From: an uncultured Acidobacteriota bacterium
GTDB lineage: Bacteria > Acidobacteriota > Thermoanaerobaculia > Gp7-AA8
Assembly: GCA_963821585.1 (NCBI GenBank)
Contig: CAWGEI010000005.1
Coordinates: forward strand, 6,603 to 70,602
Reading direction: 5' to 3'
Length of the DNA: 64,000 bases
The notes under the pieces were generated by a model that worked only from the letters and a program-made list of their open reading frames with translations, ran no database searches and was not told where the DNA came from. Both the position numbers and the translations under genes were made by a program. This document shows positions 29,702-57,653 of this stretch, piece after piece. How positions within the stretch are numbered: the first letter of the stretch is position 1; every line of letters starts with the position of its first letter.

Positions 29702-29890
29702 CTGTCGCCCGCTACGCGGGCTCGTTCCCAGCGACCGCGCTATTCCCCCGGCTGAAGCCGGGGTCTATTTTCTGTAGCCCGCTACGCGGGCAGAATTTGC
29801 CGCCGTAGGCGGCGACAGAAAATAGCCTCCGGCTTCAGCCGGAGGACTGCGACGGGTTGGGGTTGCGAGCCCGCGTATGCGGGCGGCAGA
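29702..29890. repeat. Family-2 nested composite palindrome, copy C
   Basis: CTGTCGCCCGCTACGCGGGCTCGTTCC ... CCCCCGGCTGAAGCCGGGGTCTATTTTCT ... GCCCGCTACGCGGGC / GCCGCCGTAGGCGGC ... AATAGCCTCCGGCTTCAGCCGGAGG ... CGAGCCCGCGTATGCGGGCGGCAGAG. Confidence 0.9.
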
Positions 29891-29900
29891 GATTTGCCCC

Positions 29901-31040
29901 TCACATCCCGTCGAAGGCGTTCTCGAGATCCGCGATCAGGTCCTCGATGTCCTCGATCCCCACCGAGATGCGCACGAGGCCCGGGGTGATGCCGAGGCGA
30001 GTGCGGGTCTCCAGGGGGACGGACGCGTGCGTCATCGTCTCCGGGTGCGAGATCAGCGTCTCCACGCCGCCGAGGGATTCGGCGAGGGAGCAGAGGCGGA
30101 CGCGGTCGAGGAACTTCTTCGCGTTCTCCAGCGAGCCCAGATCGAACGAGATCATCGAGCCGAAGCCGTTCATCTGGCGCTTCGCCAGCTCGTGCTGCGG
30201 ATGGTCCGAGAGGCCGGGGTAATAGATCTTCTGCACCTTCGCGTGGTGCGAGAGGTAATTCGCCATCGCCATCCCGTTCTCTTCGTGGCGCTTCATCCGC
30301 ACCGCCAGCGTCTTCACGCCGCGCAGCACGAGCCACGAATCGAACGGCGACAGGATCGCGCCGACCGCGTTCTGCAGGAAGCCGATCTGCTCGCCGAGGT
30401 CGTCGCGGTTCGAGATCACCGCGCCACCCACCGAGTCCGAATGACCGTTGAGGAACTTCGTTGTCGAGTGCACGACGATGTCCGCGCCCAGCTCGATCGG
30501 CTTCTGCAGCCAAGGCGAGCAGAACGTGTTGTCGACGACCACCAGCGCGCCCGCCTGGTGCGCGACGTCCGCGCACGCGGCCAGGTCCGTTACCGTCATC
30601 ATCGGATTCGTCGGCGTCTCCAGGAACACGAGCTTCGTGTTCGCCTGCAGCGCGTTGCGCACGTTGTCCACGTTCGACGTATCGACGTACGTGAACTCCA
30701 GCCCGAACTTCCCCAGCACGCGGCTGAACAGGCGGTACGAGCCGCCGTACATGTTCTCGCCCGCAATCACGTGATCGCCCGACTTCAGCAGGCGGAAGAC
30801 CGTGTCCGTCGCCGACATGCCGGACGCGAAGCAGTGTCCGTACTTGCCCTTCTCCAGCGCGGCGAGGTTCGCCTCGAGCGCCGAGCGCGTCGGGTTCTGC
30901 GTGCGCGCGTACTCGTAGCCCTTATGGCGTCCGAGCTCGGGCTGCACGTACGTCGAGGTCTGATAGATCGGGATGGTGACGGCGCCGGTGTGCGGCTCGG
31001 GCTCCTGCCCGGCGTGAATGCAATCGGTGGAAAAACCCAT
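29901..31040 (-). CDS. Cystathionine gamma-synthase/gamma-lyase family PLP enzyme
   Basis: 379 aa: TGAVTIPIYQTSTY...HSTTKFLNGHSD. Confidence 0.9.
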   Translation of the reverse strand: MGFSTDCIHAGQEPEPHTGAVTIPIYQTSTYVQPELGRHKGYEYARTQNPTRSALEANLAALEKGKYGHCFASGMSATDTVFRLLKSGDHVIAGENMYGGSYRLFSRVLGKFGLEFTYVDTSNVDNVRNALQANTKLVFLETPTNPMMTVTDLAACADVAHQAGALVVVDNTFCSPWLQKPIELGADIVVHSTTKFLNGHSDSVGGAVISNRDDLGEQIGFLQNAVGAILSPFDSWLVLRGVKTLAVRMKRHEENGMAMANYLSHHAKVQKIYYPGLSDHPQHELAKRQMNGFGSMISFDLGSLENAKKFLDRVRLCSLAESLGGVETLISHPETMTHASVPLETRTRLGITPGLVRISVGIEDIEDLIADLENAFDGM

Positions 31041-48090: not shown

Positions 48091-48978
48091 TCACGCGCTG
48101 GCGGCGCGGAATTCGAGGAACCAGGGCTCGCGGCGGCCGAATTTGGTCGCGAGGGCTACGCCGACGCCGAAGATGCTGGACAGGGACCAGAGGATGGTTC
48201 CGACGACGGGGATGAAGCGCAACGAACCGAGAAGCAACACGCCGATCACGACCATGGCCAGGTCGCCGCGGAGCCACTTCCGCTGCTCGAGCTGACCGCG
48301 CGAGCGCGCGCCGGCGATCAGGGTGCCCACCGCGTGGAAGACGGCGATCATGCCGTAGATCTTGGTCAGCAGAGCGAACACGGCCAGCGCGGCGAGCAGC
48401 GGGATGCCGACGACGTACGGCACGAGGTAGCTGAACGCGATCGCGGTGAGGACGAAGCTGGTCAGCGCGACGAGGCCGAGGACGAAGCAGTGCAGCGCGC
48501 TGGTGCGCACTTCGACGGACGACAGGCGGATCTCACGGCCGCTCATGAGCGTCACCACGATCGCCGCGATCAGCCACACCAGCACCAGCGAGGCGATGAT
48601 GGCATTCTTCGTCAGCGCGCCCGCGGCCCCTTCCAGCGACGCCAGCGGGTAGATCCGGCCACCCACGCGCCCTTCCGCACCCATCAGCGTCGCGCCCGCA
48701 TGGATCAGGTTTCCCTGCACGCGTCCGTTCCCCGCGAACGTCACCTTCCCGCCGATGACCAGCAGATCGCCAGCGATCACTTCCCGCAGCAGGAGCGTCC
48801 CGCCGTAGACCTGCACCGTGCCGAGGACCGGCTCGTCGATGGTCGCGTTCTCGTCGACGAAGTGCGTGTCCGAGGTCGTCGTCCGCGACTGCCCCTTCGC
48901 CCCGGTCGGCAGAACGACCGCGAACAGCGCCACCAGCGCCGCAACGACGGTCAGCGGAACGACGAGCCGTCTAAACAT
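48091..48978 (-). CDS. Membrane protein with an N-terminal bactofilin-like (polymer-forming beta-helix) repeat region and 5-6 TM helices
   Basis: 295 aa: GTVQVYGGTLLLREVIAGDLLVIGGKVTFAGNGRVQGNLIHAGATLMGAEGRVGGRIY, then a hydrophobic C-terminal half. It is the third gene of the ECF sigma operon. Confidence 0.65.
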   Translation of the reverse strand: MFRRLVVPLTVVAALVALFAVVLPTGAKGQSRTTTSDTHFVDENATIDEPVLGTVQVYGGTLLLREVIAGDLLVIGGKVTFAGNGRVQGNLIHAGATLMGAEGRVGGRIYPLASLEGAAGALTKNAIIASLVLVWLIAAIVVTLMSGREIRLSSVEVRTSALHCFVLGLVALTSFVLTAIAFSYLVPYVVGIPLLAALAVFALLTKIYGMIAVFHAVGTLIAGARSRGQLEQRKWLRGDLAMVVIGVLLLGSLRFIPVVGTILWSLSSIFGVGVALATKFGRREPWFLEFRAASA

Positions 48979-49387
48979 CGACTCCCTTCGGCGCGCGGCG
49001 CAGCAGGAAGTACAGGATGGTATTGATGGCCACGAACAGCACCGCGACGAGCGGTCCGCCGATCGCGCGCCCGGTCAGCTGCAAGAACGTGAGCAGCGCT
49101 TCGAGCGACGGCATCGACGACGTGACGACCGTGATCGGAGAGATCCCTGCATACGCCGAGAGCACGATCGCCAGCGTCAGCGCCGACACCAGGCCCGCGC
49201 CGACCAGAGGCCACGTGCGGTGCGACGAGCCTTCCCAGGACGCCAGCGGCAGCGCGTCCACACGGATGGGACGATGCTCGATCTCGAGCGGCAGCGCGAA
49301 GTCCTCCTCGAGCGCGCGGCACTCCGCGCACGACTCGAGGTGAGCCGCGTTCGCCTCCGGATCCTGCAGGTATTCCTCACATGTCAT
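48971..49387 (-). CDS. Anti-sigma factor (zf-HC2-like N-terminus, membrane anchored)
   Basis: 138 aa: MTCEEYLQDPEANAAHLESCAECRALEE, then TM helices. It overlaps the sigma gene by 4 nt. Confidence 0.75.
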   Translation of the reverse strand: MTCEEYLQDPEANAAHLESCAECRALEEDFALPLEIEHRPIRVDALPLASWEGSSHRTWPLVGAGLVSALTLAIVLSAYAGISPITVVTSSMPSLEALLTFLQLTGRAIGGPLVAVLFVAINTILYFLLRRAPKGVDV

Positions 49388-49971
49388 AAAGGTTCCACGA
49401 AAGATCCGAGCGATTCCTTCAGCAAATTCCGCGCTCGGAACAGTTTGTTCTTGACCGTGCCGAGGGGGAGCTTCTTCATCGAAGCGATCTCCTCGTACGA
49501 GAGCTCCGCGAAGTGGCGGAGCTGAATGAGCTCGCGATAATCGGACGGCAACTGCTCGACGGCCTTGTCGATCGCGGCGCTGAGCTGCTTGTTCTTGAGC
49601 GCGCGGTACGGAGAAATGCCGTCGTCGGCAAACTCGCGCTCTTTCCCGCTCGGCTCTTCCTCGGTCGGCCGCGCCAGCGGCACCTCGGAGATCGACTTCT
49701 TCCGCAGCGCATCGATGGCGCTGTTCTGCGCGATCCGGAACAGCCAGGTCGAGAACTGATACTTCGGATCGTAGCGATCGAGTGCGAGATAAACCTTCAC
49801 GAAAATTTCCTGCGCCAGATCGTGCGCGTCTTCGTAGCGATGCGTGATCCGGTACACGTAATTGACGAGCCGCTTCTCGTAGCGGCCCACCAGCGTCGTG
49901 AACAGGTCCCTTTCGCCGCCGAGGATCCGCTCCACGAGGGCGCGGTCATCGAGCTGAACACGTTCTGCCAT
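49384..49971 (-). CDS. ECF-type RNA polymerase sigma-70 family factor
   Basis: 195 aa with region 2 (DAHDLAQEIFVKVY...FSTWLFRIAQN) and region 4 (SYEEIASMKKLPLGTVKNKLFRAR). Confidence 0.92.
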   Translation of the reverse strand: MAERVQLDDRALVERILGGERDLFTTLVGRYEKRLVNYVYRITHRYEDAHDLAQEIFVKVYLALDRYDPKYQFSTWLFRIAQNSAIDALRKKSISEVPLARPTEEEPSGKEREFADDGISPYRALKNKQLSAAIDKAVEQLPSDYRELIQLRHFAELSYEEIASMKKLPLGTVKNKLFRARNLLKESLGSFVEPL

Positions 49972-52169: not shown

Positions 52170-54026
52170 TCAAGCCGGCGGGGGCACGCGGAAGCGCGTG
52201 CCGCTGAAGGTCAGCCGGCCGCTCTTCTTGCGCGCGCCACGGCGCTGGGCGAGGAAGTCTTCCTTCGCTTCCTTGAGCGTCGAGGGCACGTAGCTCGCGC
52301 CGGCCTTGAGGGTCTTCTGGCGGTCGCGCGAGAACGCGGAGCCGCCGGCCACGATGGCCAGCTCGGGGAAGTTCGCGTTCAGGAGCTGCAGCATCGCGTG
52401 GCCCTGGCCGAGGTGGTCGGGGTTCGTGCAGGAGACGAACACGGCTTCCGGCTTCACTTCGTTGATGAACGCGATCAGCTCGGGCTCCGGCAGGTCGGTG
52501 AAGTAATCCGCCGTATACCCCTCGGTCCGCAGCAGCTGGGTGAGCATCAGCGTGCCGAGGGAGAGGCGCTCGCCGGCGACGGAGACGGCGACGATGTGCT
52601 TCGTCGGATCGGGCGTCCCCGCGTTGCGGTCGCCGAAACGGATGATCAGCTCGCGCACGACGTCCTTGATGAAGTGATCGTGCGCCTGGGTGATGCGCTT
52701 GCGGTCGAGCTCTTCCTGCGCGAACGTGAGCGTCGGGATGAAGAGGTCCGTGAACATCTCCTCCATCGTCGAGGCCTCGGCGTACCGGTCGGCGATGGCG
52801 ATCGCGCCCGTTCTGTCGCGCAGGAGCAGGCGGTTGTAGTAGCTGAGGTAGCCCTCCAGCGGGTCCTCGCTGCCGAACATGATCGAGAAGATCCGCAGCG
52901 CGGGGATGAACTCGCCGCCGACGGTGAGACACACGGTGATCGGTGTCGCGAGCAGCAGGCCGACCGGACCCCAGAGCCAGCCCCAGAAAATCGCCGCGAG
53001 TAACAGGGCTATGGGAGATACCCCGACGCGATGTCCGACGACGATCGGCTCGATGAACCCGCCGATCAGCTGGTCGCTGAAGACGAACAGGCCGAGGACG
53101 GCGAGGGAGGAGTACCAGTTCGGAAAGACGGCGAACGCGAGGAACGTCGGCGCCGCGGCACTGAGCACCGCGCCGATGTACGGGATGAAGCGCAGCAATC
53201 CCGCGAGCACACCCCACAGCGCGGCGTGCGGCACGCGCAACATCCACAGGCCGATGCCGATGAGCACACCGAACCCGATGTTCAACAACGCAATCGTGAG
53301 CAGGTAACGGCTGATGCGCTGCGACGTCTCGCCGATGGCCTGGGTCGTCACGGTGAGATGGGCGCGTCCCGCGACGCGCAGCAGTTTGTCCCGCAATTGC
53401 TCGCGGTCGCGGAGGAGGAAGAAGACGACCACGACGACGAGGAACGTCGCGGCGACACCCTCGACGCTCGGCGCCACTTCCTCGTAACGCTCGGCGAGCG
53501 TCTTCCGCTCCGGGATGACGCGCACCTTGAGCTGCTCGCGCTCGCGTGTCTCGCCGACGGCGGCCACGCGCTGCAGCGCGTCTTCGAGCAGGGTGAACTG
53601 GCCGGCGCGCTTGCGGATCGACGCCAGCTTGCGGTCGACGTTGTCGCTGGTCGCCGCGCTGCTCAGCTCTTTTGCGACGGAGTTCAACTGCTGGTAGATC
53701 CACCAGCCGCCGAATCCCAGGGCGATCGTCGTCAGGCCGAGGGAGAGGACGATGGCGCCGGTGCGGCGGATGATGGTGCGCTCCAGGCGGATGACGATCG
53801 GCGTCAGAAGAAATGCGAAGAGCACCGCGAGCGCGACCGGCACGACCACGGGTCGCGCAAAGTGCAGCACGGCGATGACGATGATCGTCCCGACCAGGAT
53901 GCGGGCGTTGCCTTCGCGCCGGTCGACCGTGCGCTTGTCGACGACAGCCTCCGGCTGGGGGCGCGGAGGCATGCGCCGCATGGAGAGCGTGCGGTCAAAC
54001 CGATCTGTGTCTTCTTCGTCGGGCAC
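52170..54026 (-). CDS. AI-2E (PerM/UPF0118) family permease fused to a C-terminal CarH/LitR-type helical bundle and B12-binding-like domain
   Basis: 618 aa. The N-terminal about 380 aa are permease (LLRFIPYIGAVLSAAAP). The C-terminus HIVAVSVAGERLSLGTLMLTQLLRTEGYTADYF...KPEAVFVSCT...LAIVAGGSAF follows the B12-binding Rossmann pattern, with Leu where the DxHxxG His normally sits. Confidence 0.8.
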   Translation of the reverse strand: MPDEEDTDRFDRTLSMRRMPPRPQPEAVVDKRTVDRREGNARILVGTIIVIAVLHFARPVVVPVALAVLFAFLLTPIVIRLERTIIRRTGAIVLSLGLTTIALGFGGWWIYQQLNSVAKELSSAATSDNVDRKLASIRKRAGQFTLLEDALQRVAAVGETREREQLKVRVIPERKTLAERYEEVAPSVEGVAATFLVVVVVFFLLRDREQLRDKLLRVAGRAHLTVTTQAIGETSQRISRYLLTIALLNIGFGVLIGIGLWMLRVPHAALWGVLAGLLRFIPYIGAVLSAAAPTFLAFAVFPNWYSSLAVLGLFVFSDQLIGGFIEPIVVGHRVGVSPIALLLAAIFWGWLWGPVGLLLATPITVCLTVGGEFIPALRIFSIMFGSEDPLEGYLSYYNRLLLRDRTGAIAIADRYAEASTMEEMFTDLFIPTLTFAQEELDRKRITQAHDHFIKDVVRELIIRFGDRNAGTPDPTKHIVAVSVAGERLSLGTLMLTQLLRTEGYTADYFTDLPEPELIAFINEVKPEAVFVSCTNPDHLGQGHAMLQLLNANFPELAIVAGGSAFSRDRQKTLKAGASYVPSTLKEAKEDFLAQRRGARKKSGRLTFSGTRFRVPPPA

Positions 54027-54039
54027 TCGGGTGCTGAGT

Positions 54040-55869
54040 CTACTGCAAGGGCGTGGCCGCCGGCTCGGACCAGGAGATTGCTTCGAGGCTCAACCCGAGC
54101 TCGCGACCGTCATCTTTCGGCCGGATGGGCTGGTCGGTCGCGAGGAGCAGCTGGTTCGCGCCTTCGCGATGGCTCGGCAGGATGTACCGGAGATCCAGCT
54201 TGCCGTTCGGTGGCGCGGTCCGGCGATCGATCACGGTCCCGTTCCACGTCAAGGTGATCACCGGCGGCCTCGGCGTCGCATCCACGGGCGCATGCAGTCT
54301 CAGGCGCAGCTCTCCCTGCCCGTAAAGCGCGGGGGAAAGGAGGATCTCGCCCTCGCGCTGCATCCAGCGCCAGTGGTTCCGGCCGTCGGTCTCGAGCAGG
54401 TGCCAGCCGCGGGACCAGCGAATGATGCGGCGCATCGGGACGACACCGATCTCGAAGAAGCGCGGCCGTGTGATCTCGAAGAGCTGCTCCCGCTTGCGCG
54501 TGAACATGCGGATGCCGGGATGCTGCCGCTCGCCCTCGAAGAGGTAGTAATTCCCGGCCACCAGATCCTCGGCCGGCAACTCTTCGTCATGGCCAACGAT
54601 GCGGTAGTCATAGTCGCCGATGACATACGCCGCGTGGTAGGCGAGATTCACCTGCACGTAGACGCGGGGCCCGGTTTTGGGGACGTTCGTCCGGATCCAT
54701 TGGAATGCAGCGACGGCCGGGGCCGGCTCGGTGCGCGCGAAGCGCAGCGCCGGCCATGTCCATTTGGCAAGCGACCAGGTGACGAACCCCGACAGGACCA
54801 GGAAAAGCGGCAGGCGCGCGCGCGACGGCACGAGCTGCGCGACGGCCTCCGCACCCGCGACGGCGAGGAATGCGTGCAGCGGCAGATAGGCGATCGCGTA
54901 GCGCGCCAGCGCCGACATGTCGAGCATCAGCCAGGTGAGGACCGCCATCGGCAGGAACATGACCAGGAGCACGGCGATGCTCCACCGTCTCCGCACGAGC
55001 GCGTCGAGGAGCGCGACGGCAGCGAGAATCACCACCGCGAACCGCGCTCGCCCGCCTCCCTGCGGATAGAGAAACACGCGCGGCGCCAGTTCGCGCAGCG
55101 GCGTGCGGTACGGATTGCGGAAGGAGTCGGTCTCGCGGAGGTGCTTCTGGATGTAGCGCACTTCCTCGAGGTAGGCGGCAGGAAAGCCGGTGGAGTAGTA
55201 CGCCGCGCCGAGATAAGCGAGGAAGACGACCGCCGCGGCGGCGAGCCACGAGAGAACGAAAGTCTTCATCCGGCGCAACGCGAAGGCGCCGAGGAGCGCG
55301 GGGGGCGCGGCGACGAGGAGGAGTTGCGGGCGGATGCCACACGCCAGGGCGGTGAGGAGCGCGCCGGCCAGGTAGGCACTCGAGCTGCGTCCGCCGCGCA
55401 GCAGCAGAGCCGCCGCGAACAGGATCAGCGCCAGGGCGGGGACGTCGCTCAAGCCGGTACCGCCGTGGTACCAGACGGACGGCAGAAACGCGGTCATCGC
55501 CGCCACGCTGAACGCGAACGGCGTCCGGAAACGCAGCTCGCGGGCCAGGAGGAATGCCGCGGGGAAGACCAGCATCGACGCCAGCGTGGCCACGGCTTGC
55601 AGCGCGTGAAAATCGGTGTCGGTGAAGAGCCGCGCGACCTTCGCCGCGGCGATGAAGAGCGGATAGCCGGGCGGATGGGGGTGGTGCGGCTTGACGTCGT
55701 ATTCGCTCACGCCGAACGCGAACAGGGTCTCGTCCCAGTCGTGAAGCGTCATCGACAGCGCGGGAAAGCGGGTGAGCGCAATCGCGACTGCAAGAATGTT
55801 GAAGAGGATTTTCTGGCCGCGGGTCAAGGAGATGGGAGACTCACGAAGGGCAGCGAGATACGCGAGCAT
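54040..55869 (-). CDS. GT-C-fold membrane glycosyltransferase (DUF2723/PMT-like)
   Basis: 609 aa: DWDETLFAFGVSEYDVKPHHPHPPGYPLFIAAAK, then many TM helices and a soluble C-terminal domain. Confidence 0.75.
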   Translation of the reverse strand: MLAYLAALRESPISLTRGQKILFNILAVAIALTRFPALSMTLHDWDETLFAFGVSEYDVKPHHPHPPGYPLFIAAAKVARLFTDTDFHALQAVATLASMLVFPAAFLLARELRFRTPFAFSVAAMTAFLPSVWYHGGTGLSDVPALALILFAAALLLRGGRSSSAYLAGALLTALACGIRPQLLLVAAPPALLGAFALRRMKTFVLSWLAAAAVVFLAYLGAAYYSTGFPAAYLEEVRYIQKHLRETDSFRNPYRTPLRELAPRVFLYPQGGGRARFAVVILAAVALLDALVRRRWSIAVLLVMFLPMAVLTWLMLDMSALARYAIAYLPLHAFLAVAGAEAVAQLVPSRARLPLFLVLSGFVTWSLAKWTWPALRFARTEPAPAVAAFQWIRTNVPKTGPRVYVQVNLAYHAAYVIGDYDYRIVGHDEELPAEDLVAGNYYLFEGERQHPGIRMFTRKREQLFEITRPRFFEIGVVPMRRIIRWSRGWHLLETDGRNHWRWMQREGEILLSPALYGQGELRLRLHAPVDATPRPPVITLTWNGTVIDRRTAPPNGKLDLRYILPSHREGANQLLLATDQPIRPKDDGRELGLSLEAISWSEPAATPLQ

Positions 55870-55895
55870 GGGACGGCCCGCATTCTGTCATCATT

Positions 55896-57653
55896 ATGTC
55901 CATCACAAACAAGCAGCATCCGGGAGGTCTCGTGTCACGAATTCGCGTGTGGACGCTGTTCGCAGTCGTCGTTCTCTGCTGTACCGCGTCCGCGCAGGAC
56001 ACGCGCATCGGGGAATCGATCGAGGTCTCGATCGTCAACGTCGAGGTTCACGTCACGGACAAGCAGGGGAACCGCGTGACCGGGCTGCGGGCGGAGGACT
56101 TCGAGATCCGGGAGAACGGCAAGGCCCAGCCGATCACGAACTTCTCGGAGTACGTTTCGGCGGGCTCCGCCGGGACGGCGGCGGTCGAAGCGGCGCCCGG
56201 GAGTGCGGCTGTGAGCTCGTCCGTGAAGGCCGAGGCTCCGCCGCGGCTGCGGCGCTCGATCGTGCTGTTCATCGAGCCACTCACCCTCGCCAACTTCCGG
56301 GCGAAGGAGTTTTTCGACTCCCTCCGCACCCTGCTGCGGCGCACGGTCGAGAAAGGCGATCAGGTCTCGATCGTCACCTTCGTGCGCGCGACGCGCATCC
56401 GCCAACCGTTCACGGACGACATGGCCAGCATCGACACCACGCTCGCCGCGCTGGAGAAAGAAATGACCGGCGTCGAGGGCAATACCTACGACGAGAGCAG
56501 GTTCGTGCTCGCCGAGGCGGCGTCGTTCGAGAAGGAGTACGAGGAAGCGCTTACCGAGCTCGGATTCCCCCCGCCGGGCAACAGTACACCCGTGTCCATG
56601 TCCGAGCTGGCTGCGGCACGGCGGGAGCTCTTCCTGATCCGCCAGAAGACCGCGGCGCTGGAGTCGCTCATCCAGAGCATCTCCGGCGCGGACGCACGCA
56701 AGATCCTGATCATGGCCCCGCGCCGCTTCGGGTTGTACGCGGGGGCCCATTACTTCGGCGGAGCCGTTCCGACCCAATACAGGCAGGAACTGGACACGAC
56801 GCAGTATCGGCAGTCGCTCATCGCCAAGGCGAACGCCAACGGCGTGACGATCTACACGCTCCATCCGGAAGGGCTGCTGAACACGAGCAGCAACGATCCG
56901 TCGATCTCGGGCCAGGACCGCATGGTGAGCACGCTCGAGCAGGATCTCGCCCGTGCGAGACTCGGCAACGGGATCCTGATGAATGAGTCCTCGGCGCTGG
57001 ATGAGGTCGCGGTCGCGACCGGCGGTCTCAGCGCATGGGGGAGCACGGGCATCGCGAAGCTGCTCCCCCGGGTCGGCGACGACCTCGAGACCTACTACTC
57101 GCTCGCGTACAGGGCCACGGCGACGGGGAAGGACGCCGCGCGCAAGATCGTCGTCACGACGAAGAATCCGGCCCACGTCGTGCGGGCGCGGAAGCAGTTC
57201 GTCGAAAAGTCCGAGACGACGCAGATCAAGGACCGCGTGCGCTCGAACCTGTTCCAGAAGGTCGAGGGCTCGAGCGCGCAGATTCCGTTCGACGTGGCGG
57301 TGGGGACGGTCAAGAAGACCGGCAGGAACCGCTGGACGGTGCCGCTGAAGATCCGCATCCCGATCGGCAGCCTGACGACCTTGCCGCGCGGCCCCGAGGA
57401 GTCGGGAACGTTCTCCGTCTTCTTCGCCACCGGCGGCGTCCTCGGCGTCATGAGCGAAGTCGAGCAGCGCACACAGTCGTTCACCATCCCCCGCGGCGAC
57501 GTCGCGCGCGCGAAGACGTCGCACTTCACGTACGACCTCGAGCTCTCGATCGACCAGCTCGTGAAGTCCCTGTCGATCGCGGTGATGGACGACGTCGGCA
57601 AGGAGTTCGGCATCAAGCGGTACACGCTGCCGAAGGAATCTGCCGCCCGCTGA
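55896..57653 (+). CDS. VWFA-related (acidobacterial-type) domain protein, secreted
   Basis: 585 aa: IEVSIVNVEVHVTDKQGNRVTGLRAEDFEIRENGKAQPITNF, then a VWA-like region. The last codons and the TGA stop lie in family-2 copy D. Confidence 0.85.
   Translation: MSITNKQHPGGLVSRIRVWTLFAVVVLCCTASAQDTRIGESIEVSIVNVEVHVTDKQGNRVTGLRAEDFEIRENGKAQPITNFSEYVSAGSAGTAAVEAAPGSAAVSSSVKAEAPPRLRRSIVLFIEPLTLANFRAKEFFDSLRTLLRRTVEKGDQVSIVTFVRATRIRQPFTDDMASIDTTLAALEKEMTGVEGNTYDESRFVLAEAASFEKEYEEALTELGFPPPGNSTPVSMSELAAARRELFLIRQKTAALESLIQSISGADARKILIMAPRRFGLYAGAHYFGGAVPTQYRQELDTTQYRQSLIAKANANGVTIYTLHPEGLLNTSSNDPSISGQDRMVSTLEQDLARARLGNGILMNESSALDEVAVATGGLSAWGSTGIAKLLPRVGDDLETYYSLAYRATATGKDAARKIVVTTKNPAHVVRARKQFVEKSETTQIKDRVRSNLFQKVEGSSAQIPFDVAVGTVKKTGRNRWTVPLKIRIPIGSLTTLPRGPEESGTFSVFFATGGVLGVMSEVEQRTQSFTIPRGDVARAKTSHFTYDLELSIDQLVKSLSIAVMDDVGKEFGIKRYTLPKESAAR

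Follow-up and report, generated by a model that had tools for sequence, protein, structure and literature searches.

A cobalamin-binding-type module with leucine at the cobalt-ligating position on an AI-2E family transporter of soil Acidobacteriota

Introduction

What does a vitamin B12 fold do on a membrane transporter once the histidine that ligates its cobalt has been replaced? The question is raised by a 618-residue protein encoded in a window of 64,000 nucleotides, the whole stretch of DNA analysed here, from an uncultured Acidobacteriota bacterium. In this protein (hereafter the query), an AI-2E family transporter is followed by a cobalamin-binding domain (CBD) of the CarH/LitR type that bears a leucine at the axial position. 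CBDs currently attract interest as a source of sensor modules, and little is known about what AI-2E transporters do or how they are regulated. The answer that we favour, with about even confidence, is that the module regulates the transporter independently of light and still binds a corrinoid; a cofactor-less scaffold is the main rival.

The initial annotation knew of no described case of such a module on a membrane permease. This is contradicted by the published HaAI-2E (PMC11796333), by the pairing of PF01594 with PF02310 in precomputed annotation, and by the AI-2E domain or fragment present in at least 64 of the best 150 clusters retrieved with the module. The fusion is real, but its architecture is already catalogued and belongs to a large family. 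What is new here is an AI-2E transporter with a terminal CBD whose site is canonical except for the leucine in the axial position.

Domain organization of the transporter fusion

The gene is a 618-residue open reading frame (ORF) with a GTG start, located where the initial annotation had placed it. Its parts are listed below with the evidence for each in brackets.

52170..54026, minus strand: whole gene, 618-residue AI-2E family transporter with a cobalamin-binding-type module (ORF, Pfam, near-identical proteins of metagenome-assembled genomes (MAGs), orthologues in 91 species genomes)
52881..53911, minus strand: AI-2E/TqsA-type membrane transport domain, residues about 39-382 (PF01594, hydrophobic segments, Foldseek match to 7nb6)
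52602..52880, minus strand: short linker and four-helix cap, B12-binding_2-like, residues 383-475 (5c8a alignment, model helices, conservation)
52272..52601, minus strand: Rossmann-type B12-binding domain, residues 476-585 (PF02310, model strands, motif spacing, invariant residues)
52563..52565, minus strand: codon of Leu488, at the position of the cobalt-ligating histidine (H177 of TtCarH) (alignments to 5c8a, 8j2w, 8j2y and the stand-alone CBD protein P0133; leucine in 76/76 orthologues)
52173..52271, minus strand: C-terminal helix and tail TFSGTRFRVPPP, residues 586-618 (conservation string, predicted local distance difference test (pLDDT))

Support for the GTG start comes from the peptide DEEDTDRFDRTLSMRR at the N-terminus, which lies upstream of the first internal methionine; its conservation in orthologues backs the long form. 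Versions of 618 and 603 residues both occur among public gene calls, and proteins 97-100% identical to the query are found in Thermoanaerobaculia MAGs.

Residues 1 to about 380, annotated at the outset as an AI-2E/PerM permease, bear out that assignment. The Pfam family AI-2E_transport (PF01594) matches residues 43-368 with an E-value of 2.6e-49 and 168.6 bits, compared to a cut-off of 34.3. Structural similarity search with Foldseek, using an AlphaFold2 model built from 50 full-length fusions, revealed that the N-terminal half adopts the TqsA fold (7nb6_A, E 2.4e-10), with a template modelling (TM) score of 0.74 normalised to the target. A loop within the membrane domain (residues 115-185) is poorly conserved and modelled with low confidence. 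In the TqsA and YdiK structures determined by cryo-EM, the N- and C-termini are both cytoplasmic; TqsA is a homopentamer that works by an elevator-type mechanism in which the C-terminal half forms the transport domain, and in larger members of the family, a GAF, TPR-like or nucleotide-binding domain is found at the C-terminus (PMC9475539). In the query, Pfam and the model place no further domain after the CBD, and the protein ends at residue 618. The sole plausible output of the module is therefore the transporter itself.

The C-terminal module adopts a CarH-type fold

The C-terminal region of about 230 residues was initially assigned as a CarH/LitR-type B12 module composed of a helical cap and a Rossmann domain, and this assignment is upheld at the level of family, alignment and fold. 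In the whole protein, the B12-binding family PF02310 scores 36.6 bits over residues 477-579 and so passes its gathering cut-off (32.1), and the C-terminal fragment alone reaches 38.9 bits. The NCBIfam CarH model spans residues 397-582, cap helices included (E 1.7e-9), at a score of 37.4 bits that lies far under its equivalog cut-off of 400. Sequence search against the PDB retrieved the photocobilins 8j2w and 8j2x (E 5e-8), together with 8j2y, and CarH 5c8a (E 4e-4).

The module is modelled confidently, with a block-mean pLDDT of about 83-93 over residues 401-590. The cap comprises four helices (392-401, 405-418, 421-441 and 447-467), and is followed by the Rossmann domain with strands 477-482, 505-509, 528-532 and 557-561. 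Superposition of the C-terminal half onto the CBD of CarH (5c8a) gave a TM score of 0.85 and a root-mean-square deviation of 2.5 Å; further Foldseek matches are LitR (3whp), AerR (7te2, TM 0.76) and photocobilin. A generic flavodoxin-like or receiver fold, which the initial annotation had considered as an alternative, is not what these matches point to. Architecture and fold of the query are thereby established.

The tail TFSGTRFRVPPP (residues 601-618; 52173-52226, minus strand) is conserved in 76 orthologues yet predicted to be disordered (pLDDT below 50 at residues 599-618). It may represent a short linear interaction motif.

Leucine replaces the axial histidine in an otherwise complete motif

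Alignments with photocobilin and CarH place Leu488, within GERLSLG, on the axial histidine of GERHEIG and GEWHAL, so that the replacement of the canonical cobalt ligand by leucine, noticed in the initial annotation, stands. The Rossmann motif runs from E486-R-L488-S-L-G491 over 40 residues to S532-C-T534, and over a further 26 residues to G561-G562. Read as ExLxxG-x40-SxT-x26-GG, with the spacing of MetH as reference, the classical B12 motif is complete in spacing and in its glycine and serine residues; the histidine alone is replaced. In the cap, the alignment to 5c8a equates L440, D441, D450 and H451 with W131, H132, E141 and H142 of TtCarH, respectively. The nearest relative outside the clade, P0133 (34% identity), is a genuine stand-alone protein with a canonical CBD; compared to it, the query carries the changes W to L, E to D and H to L, and the two have AH[ED]H, VSC and AGG in common. 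These substitutions are established.

The same residues bear on whether the module might be a CarH-like, adenosylcobalamin (AdoCbl)-dependent green-light photoreceptor that gates the permease, as its overall CarH-type fold and its retained H142 equivalent could suggest. The light-response signature of CBDs consists of GxxW, EH and GxxH (PMC11796333). The query departs from it at Q437 (G128 to Q), L440 (W131 to L), D450 (E141 to D) and L488 (H177 to L), and H451 is the sole element kept. The module lacks the determinants of AdoCbl photochemistry and, because the cap Trp of AdoCbl binding is absent, does not look like a CarH-like photoreceptor. Moreover, a signature-less CBD on an AI-2E protein has been tested. 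HaAI-2E (WP_052573826), described by Yu et al. (FEBS J 2024; PMC11796333), consists of an AI-2E domain, a CBD with arginine at the H177 position and a diguanylate cyclase; it bound hydroxocobalamin (OHCbl) alone, neither AdoCbl nor methylcobalamin, and was classed as a light-independent CBD. In addition, the source organisms are soil bacteria. The photoreceptor was accordingly rejected on the signature residues, and we consider it very improbable.

Another tetrapyrrole or ligand could occupy the pocket, such as heme in the SCHIC domain of AppA, in which case the transporter would carry a sensor of redox state or heme. SCHIC shares the fold and likewise has leucine in place of the cap Trp (L239 for W94 of AerR, PMC9144470; L440 in the query), and the invariant H451 could provide an axial ligand. 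However, the heme-ligating histidine of SCHIC sits two residues from the B12 histidine position (PMC9144470), and the corresponding query loop, VAGERLSLG, contains no histidine; ligation of the SCHIC type was rejected on this ground. Cobalamin proteins also rank first in both the sequence and the fold searches, and the GG motif of the nucleotide-tail pocket, which heme does not require, is kept. A heme or other ligand is accordingly improbable in our estimate.

The module is more strongly conserved than the membrane core

A profile scan with an alignment of the clade alone detected the module in 91 species-representative genomes. Eighty loci were kept, all of them from Thermoanaerobaculia or Acidobacteriota 'gp7' soil MAGs, with 77-97% identity. 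L488 is invariant in all 76 full-length orthologues, as are D450, H451, E486, R487, G491, S532, C533, G561 and G562. Among these orthologues, no part of the protein is better conserved than the cap region, where mean column conservation reaches 0.926 and 48 of 93 positions are invariant; the values are 0.852 for the Rossmann domain and 0.836 for the membrane core. The module is thus more conserved than the membrane core, which establishes that it is under strong purifying selection and is functional rather than decaying.

A large family of AI-2E–CBD fusions

An exhaustive HMMER search with the 236-residue module as query gave 1148 matches among 1.84 billion representatives at 50% identity. PF01594 together with PF02310 appears in the precomputed annotation of all 120 listed close homologues, and several homologues bear the JGI product name 'PerM/methanogenic corrinoid protein MtbC1'. 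Membership of the query in a large fusion family is therefore established, and named members span four phyla.

Tabulation of the CarH signature positions revealed that non-fusion proteins are nearly all canonical (GW..EH, GExHxxG). By contrast, the axial histidine is absent from most fusions, and the cap Trp together with the EH pair occurs in the permease-adjacent CBD of none; the sole exception is the near-canonical (GW..EQ, EExHxxG) extra, second CBD of P0160. Three subgroups make up the fusions. Subgroup A is the query clade, with GERLSLG..VSCT..AGGS. Subgroup B keeps the histidine in the same context (GEVHxLG..SCT..AGG) and is sister to the query clade; the neighbour-joining tree carries no support values and serves as a rough guide only. 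Subgroup C is very large and has a signature of its own, DExDxxA..AxL/V..GRW, in which every B12 motif element is changed, aspartate occupies the histidine position in 116 of 119 members, and the GG pocket has become GRW. Named members of subgroup C belong to Planctomycetota, Methylomirabilota and Gammaproteobacteria; taxonomy and context of subgroups B and C were drawn from five contig look-ups and source names only. As judged from its sequence, the query clade is unusual among the fusions in that it keeps all classical motif elements except the histidine, in addition to the invariant cap His451.

Members of subgroup C (P0174 and its relatives P0278-P0396) are AI-2E proteins of about 600-650 residues with a cryptic CBD-fold tail, mostly annotated as AI-2E only. 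Two other fusions carry additional domains: P0220 consists of AI-2E, a CBD and a SpoIIE/PP2C phosphatase, and P0160 (locus L084, 4731-7196) of AI-2E, a degenerate CBD and the second CBD mentioned above. These two proteins suggest that the permease–CBD unit can serve as an input module for signalling outputs.

This distribution lends weight to the reading in which the module is a descendant of a CBD that no longer binds a corrinoid, and instead regulates or stabilises the transporter as a cytoplasmic scaffold through oligomerisation, autoinhibition or partner binding. Loss of the histidine is the rule among the AI-2E fusions, up to the extreme of subgroup C, and in the query the axial histidine and the cap Trp, the two best-established binding determinants, are both gone. 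Furthermore, a strictly conserved cap surface and a conserved disordered tail fit a protein–protein interface. On the other side, the query clade keeps G491, S532 and G561-G562 invariant at canonical spacing, unlike subgroup C, and a pure scaffold would have no need of them; the OHCbl binding of HaAI-2E and the His-off binding known from other Rossmann CBDs, taken up below, also speak against it. We regard the scaffold as a serious possibility that falls short of an even chance.

A possible mode of corrinoid binding and transport control

The favoured reading, a light-independent module that still binds a corrinoid, would work as follows. The protein is an inner-membrane transporter of the AI-2E/TqsA type, whose last membrane element runs via a linker of about 10 residues into the cytoplasmic CBD module. 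The Trp and Glu of the cap, by which the 5'-deoxyadenosyl group is held, are missing from this module, as is the lower axial histidine; the elements of the nucleotide-tail pocket are kept. Since real B12 binders share these pocket elements, we infer corrinoid binding and its mode. The corrinoid would be bound light-independently, base-off and His-off, with Leu488 shielding the lower face of the cobalt. The invariant His451 occupies the place in the cap that, in CarH, is turned towards the upper ligand; it is a candidate to ligate aquo- or hydroxocobalamin from the upper face. The module is attached directly to the C-terminal half, which is the mobile elevator domain in TqsA; because it hangs there, a ligand-driven shift between cap and Rossmann domain, as in CarH, could restrain or release the elevator domain and so modulate transport.

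Several lines of evidence support these steps. Corrinoid binding is favoured because the clade keeps the glycine and serine pocket elements lost in subgroup C, and because the His-less AI-2E CBD of HaAI-2E binds OHCbl (PMC11796333). The canonical CBD of the nearest relative P0133 and the histidine kept by subgroup B count on the same side. The His-off mode is supported because Rossmann CBDs that bind cobalamin base-off/His-off, with Leu, Thr, Arg or Asn under the cobalt, are established, namely Mmp10/DUF512, CFeSP, TsrM/QueG and OxsB (PMC13331322). A role of His451 on the upper face is supported because LAerR senses OH-cobalamin independently of light by upper-axial histidine capture (PMC9144470).

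The following points weigh against this reading. Cofactor binding by the query protein is itself what we infer from the analysis, and the tested relative, HaAI-2E, has arginine instead of leucine and a different architecture. Attachment of OHCbl to exposed histidine residues can be adventitious. Subgroup C demonstrates that an AI-2E protein may retain the fold with no recognisable B12 site, and the invariance of the glycine and serine residues could be purely structural. A pentameric transporter offers no obvious fit with the head-to-tail dimers of CarH CBDs. Genomic links to B12 were also not found, which favours the scaffold reading: an RNA search that covered the window and five orthologous loci detected no cobalamin riboswitch and no other relevant RNA near the gene; Pfam revealed no B12 gene among the window ORFs scanned, some of which have no match and are possibly on the wrong strand; and no B12-related gene lies near five distant fusions (P0122, P0139, P0140, P0153 and P0160), whose neighbourhoods are mutually unrelated. 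In the most specific version, the module would be a genuine sensor of corrinoids with a new type of coordination (base-off, Leu488 below, His451 ligating above) and would allosterically gate an elevator-type transporter; this version is doubtful in our view.

If true, this most specific version would make the query the first ligand-gated AI-2E transporter, gated by B12 status. By extension, a repurposed B12 fold would regulate a widespread class of transporters or transceptors, namely the AI-2E proteins with cryptic CBD-fold tails of Acidobacteriota, Planctomycetota, Methylomirabilota and Gammaproteobacteria. The survey itself shows an unannotated CBD-fold tail on a very large group of '600-aa AI-2E transporters', in a fusion family that is almost unstudied. 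Within it, the query clade offers a clean natural test case: the B12 site is canonical with only the axial histidine (Leu) and the AdoCbl cap altered, the module is joined directly to the moving part of an elevator transporter, and the single gene is conserved across a whole soil lineage. Corrinoid binding, settled either way, bears on His-off sensing outside enzymes and on the direct gating of a transporter by vitamin status.

Genomic context

The query gene is flanked by housekeeping genes. Downstream synteny is conserved, with a convergent HIT gene in 71/80 loci, PrmC in 69/80, an ABC ATPase in 64/80 and an extracytoplasmic function (ECF) sigma factor in 57/80. On the upstream side, gcvPA lies about 1.6 kb from the permease gene in most genomes, and the gap between them is taken to be gcvPB, which the probe did not detect directly.

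In the window, the permease gene was initially described as translationally adjacent to a GT-C glycosyltransferase gene (54040-55869, minus strand). The adjacency is real, as the 3' end of this ORF lies 13 nt before the GTG start. The glycosyltransferase assignment fared less well: support from hidden Markov models is weak, with best E-values of 0.018 and 0.9, and the PDB sequence search gave no match. The implied functional link was rejected, because a GT-C-like gene precedes the permease in just 6 of the 80 orthologous loci and the adjacency is lineage-specific. The GT-C-like membrane protein gene and the next one, for a von Willebrand factor A (VWA)-like protein (55896-57653, plus strand), occur in 6/80 and 1/80 loci, respectively. 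Together (54040-57653) they look like an insertion peculiar to the lineage, which separates the permease from the glycine-cleavage genes.

The ECF sigma factor gene of the window (49384-49971, minus strand) is followed by two ORFs, and synteny of all three is kept in 55-57 of the 80 related genomes.

48971..49387, minus strand: putative anti-sigma factor, no Pfam match
48091..48978, minus strand: membrane protein, no Pfam match

Further away, the small RNA (sRNA) Acido-Lenti-1 (RF01687) was detected at 29798-29845 on the minus strand (38.9 bits; gathering score 37), directly 3' of a gene for a pyridoxal phosphate (PLP) enzyme of Cys/Met metabolism (29901-31040, minus strand). Outside the window, the His-retaining AI-2E–CBD fusion P0139 (L082, 6587-9914) is divergent from genes for a CsoR-type metal repressor and a cation-diffusion facilitator, a single instance.

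Comparison with known systems

The membrane domain shares its fold and Pfam family with TqsA and YdiK (7nb6; AI-2E family, TC 2.A.86). The C-terminus of TqsA is cytoplasmic, and sensor domains are known at this end of other AI-2E proteins. However, TqsA finishes in a short helix, and the C-terminal domains listed for the family include no CBD (PMC9475539).

The module shares with the CBDs of CarH and LitR (TtCarH 5c8a/5c8d, LitR 3whp) the two-subdomain fold, the ExxxxG loop, the S-x-small and GG motifs and the H142-equivalent histidine. They differ by the changes W131 to L, H132 to D, E141 to D and H177 to L, and the query is fused to a transporter and has no MerR DNA-binding domain. Similarly, AerR/PpaA (7te2) and stand-alone CBDs such as P0133 possess the same cap and Rossmann fold; they keep the lower axial histidine and the cap Trp, and act via protein partners with no transporter attached.

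The base-off/His-off CBDs of CFeSP, Mmp10/DUF512, TsrM, OxsB and TokK resemble the query in having a Rossmann B12 domain without a histidine ligand and an uncharged or hydrophobic residue under the cobalt (Leu in Mmp10). Unlike the query, they are catalytic domains of enzymes, where another loop or the cap helix often supplies the residue beneath the cobalt. Compared by its published description, HaAI-2E has the same order as the query, in which the AI-2E domain is directly followed by a CBD that lacks both the axial histidine and the light-response signature, but it differs in having arginine, where the query has leucine, at the H177 position and an extra C-terminal diguanylate cyclase.

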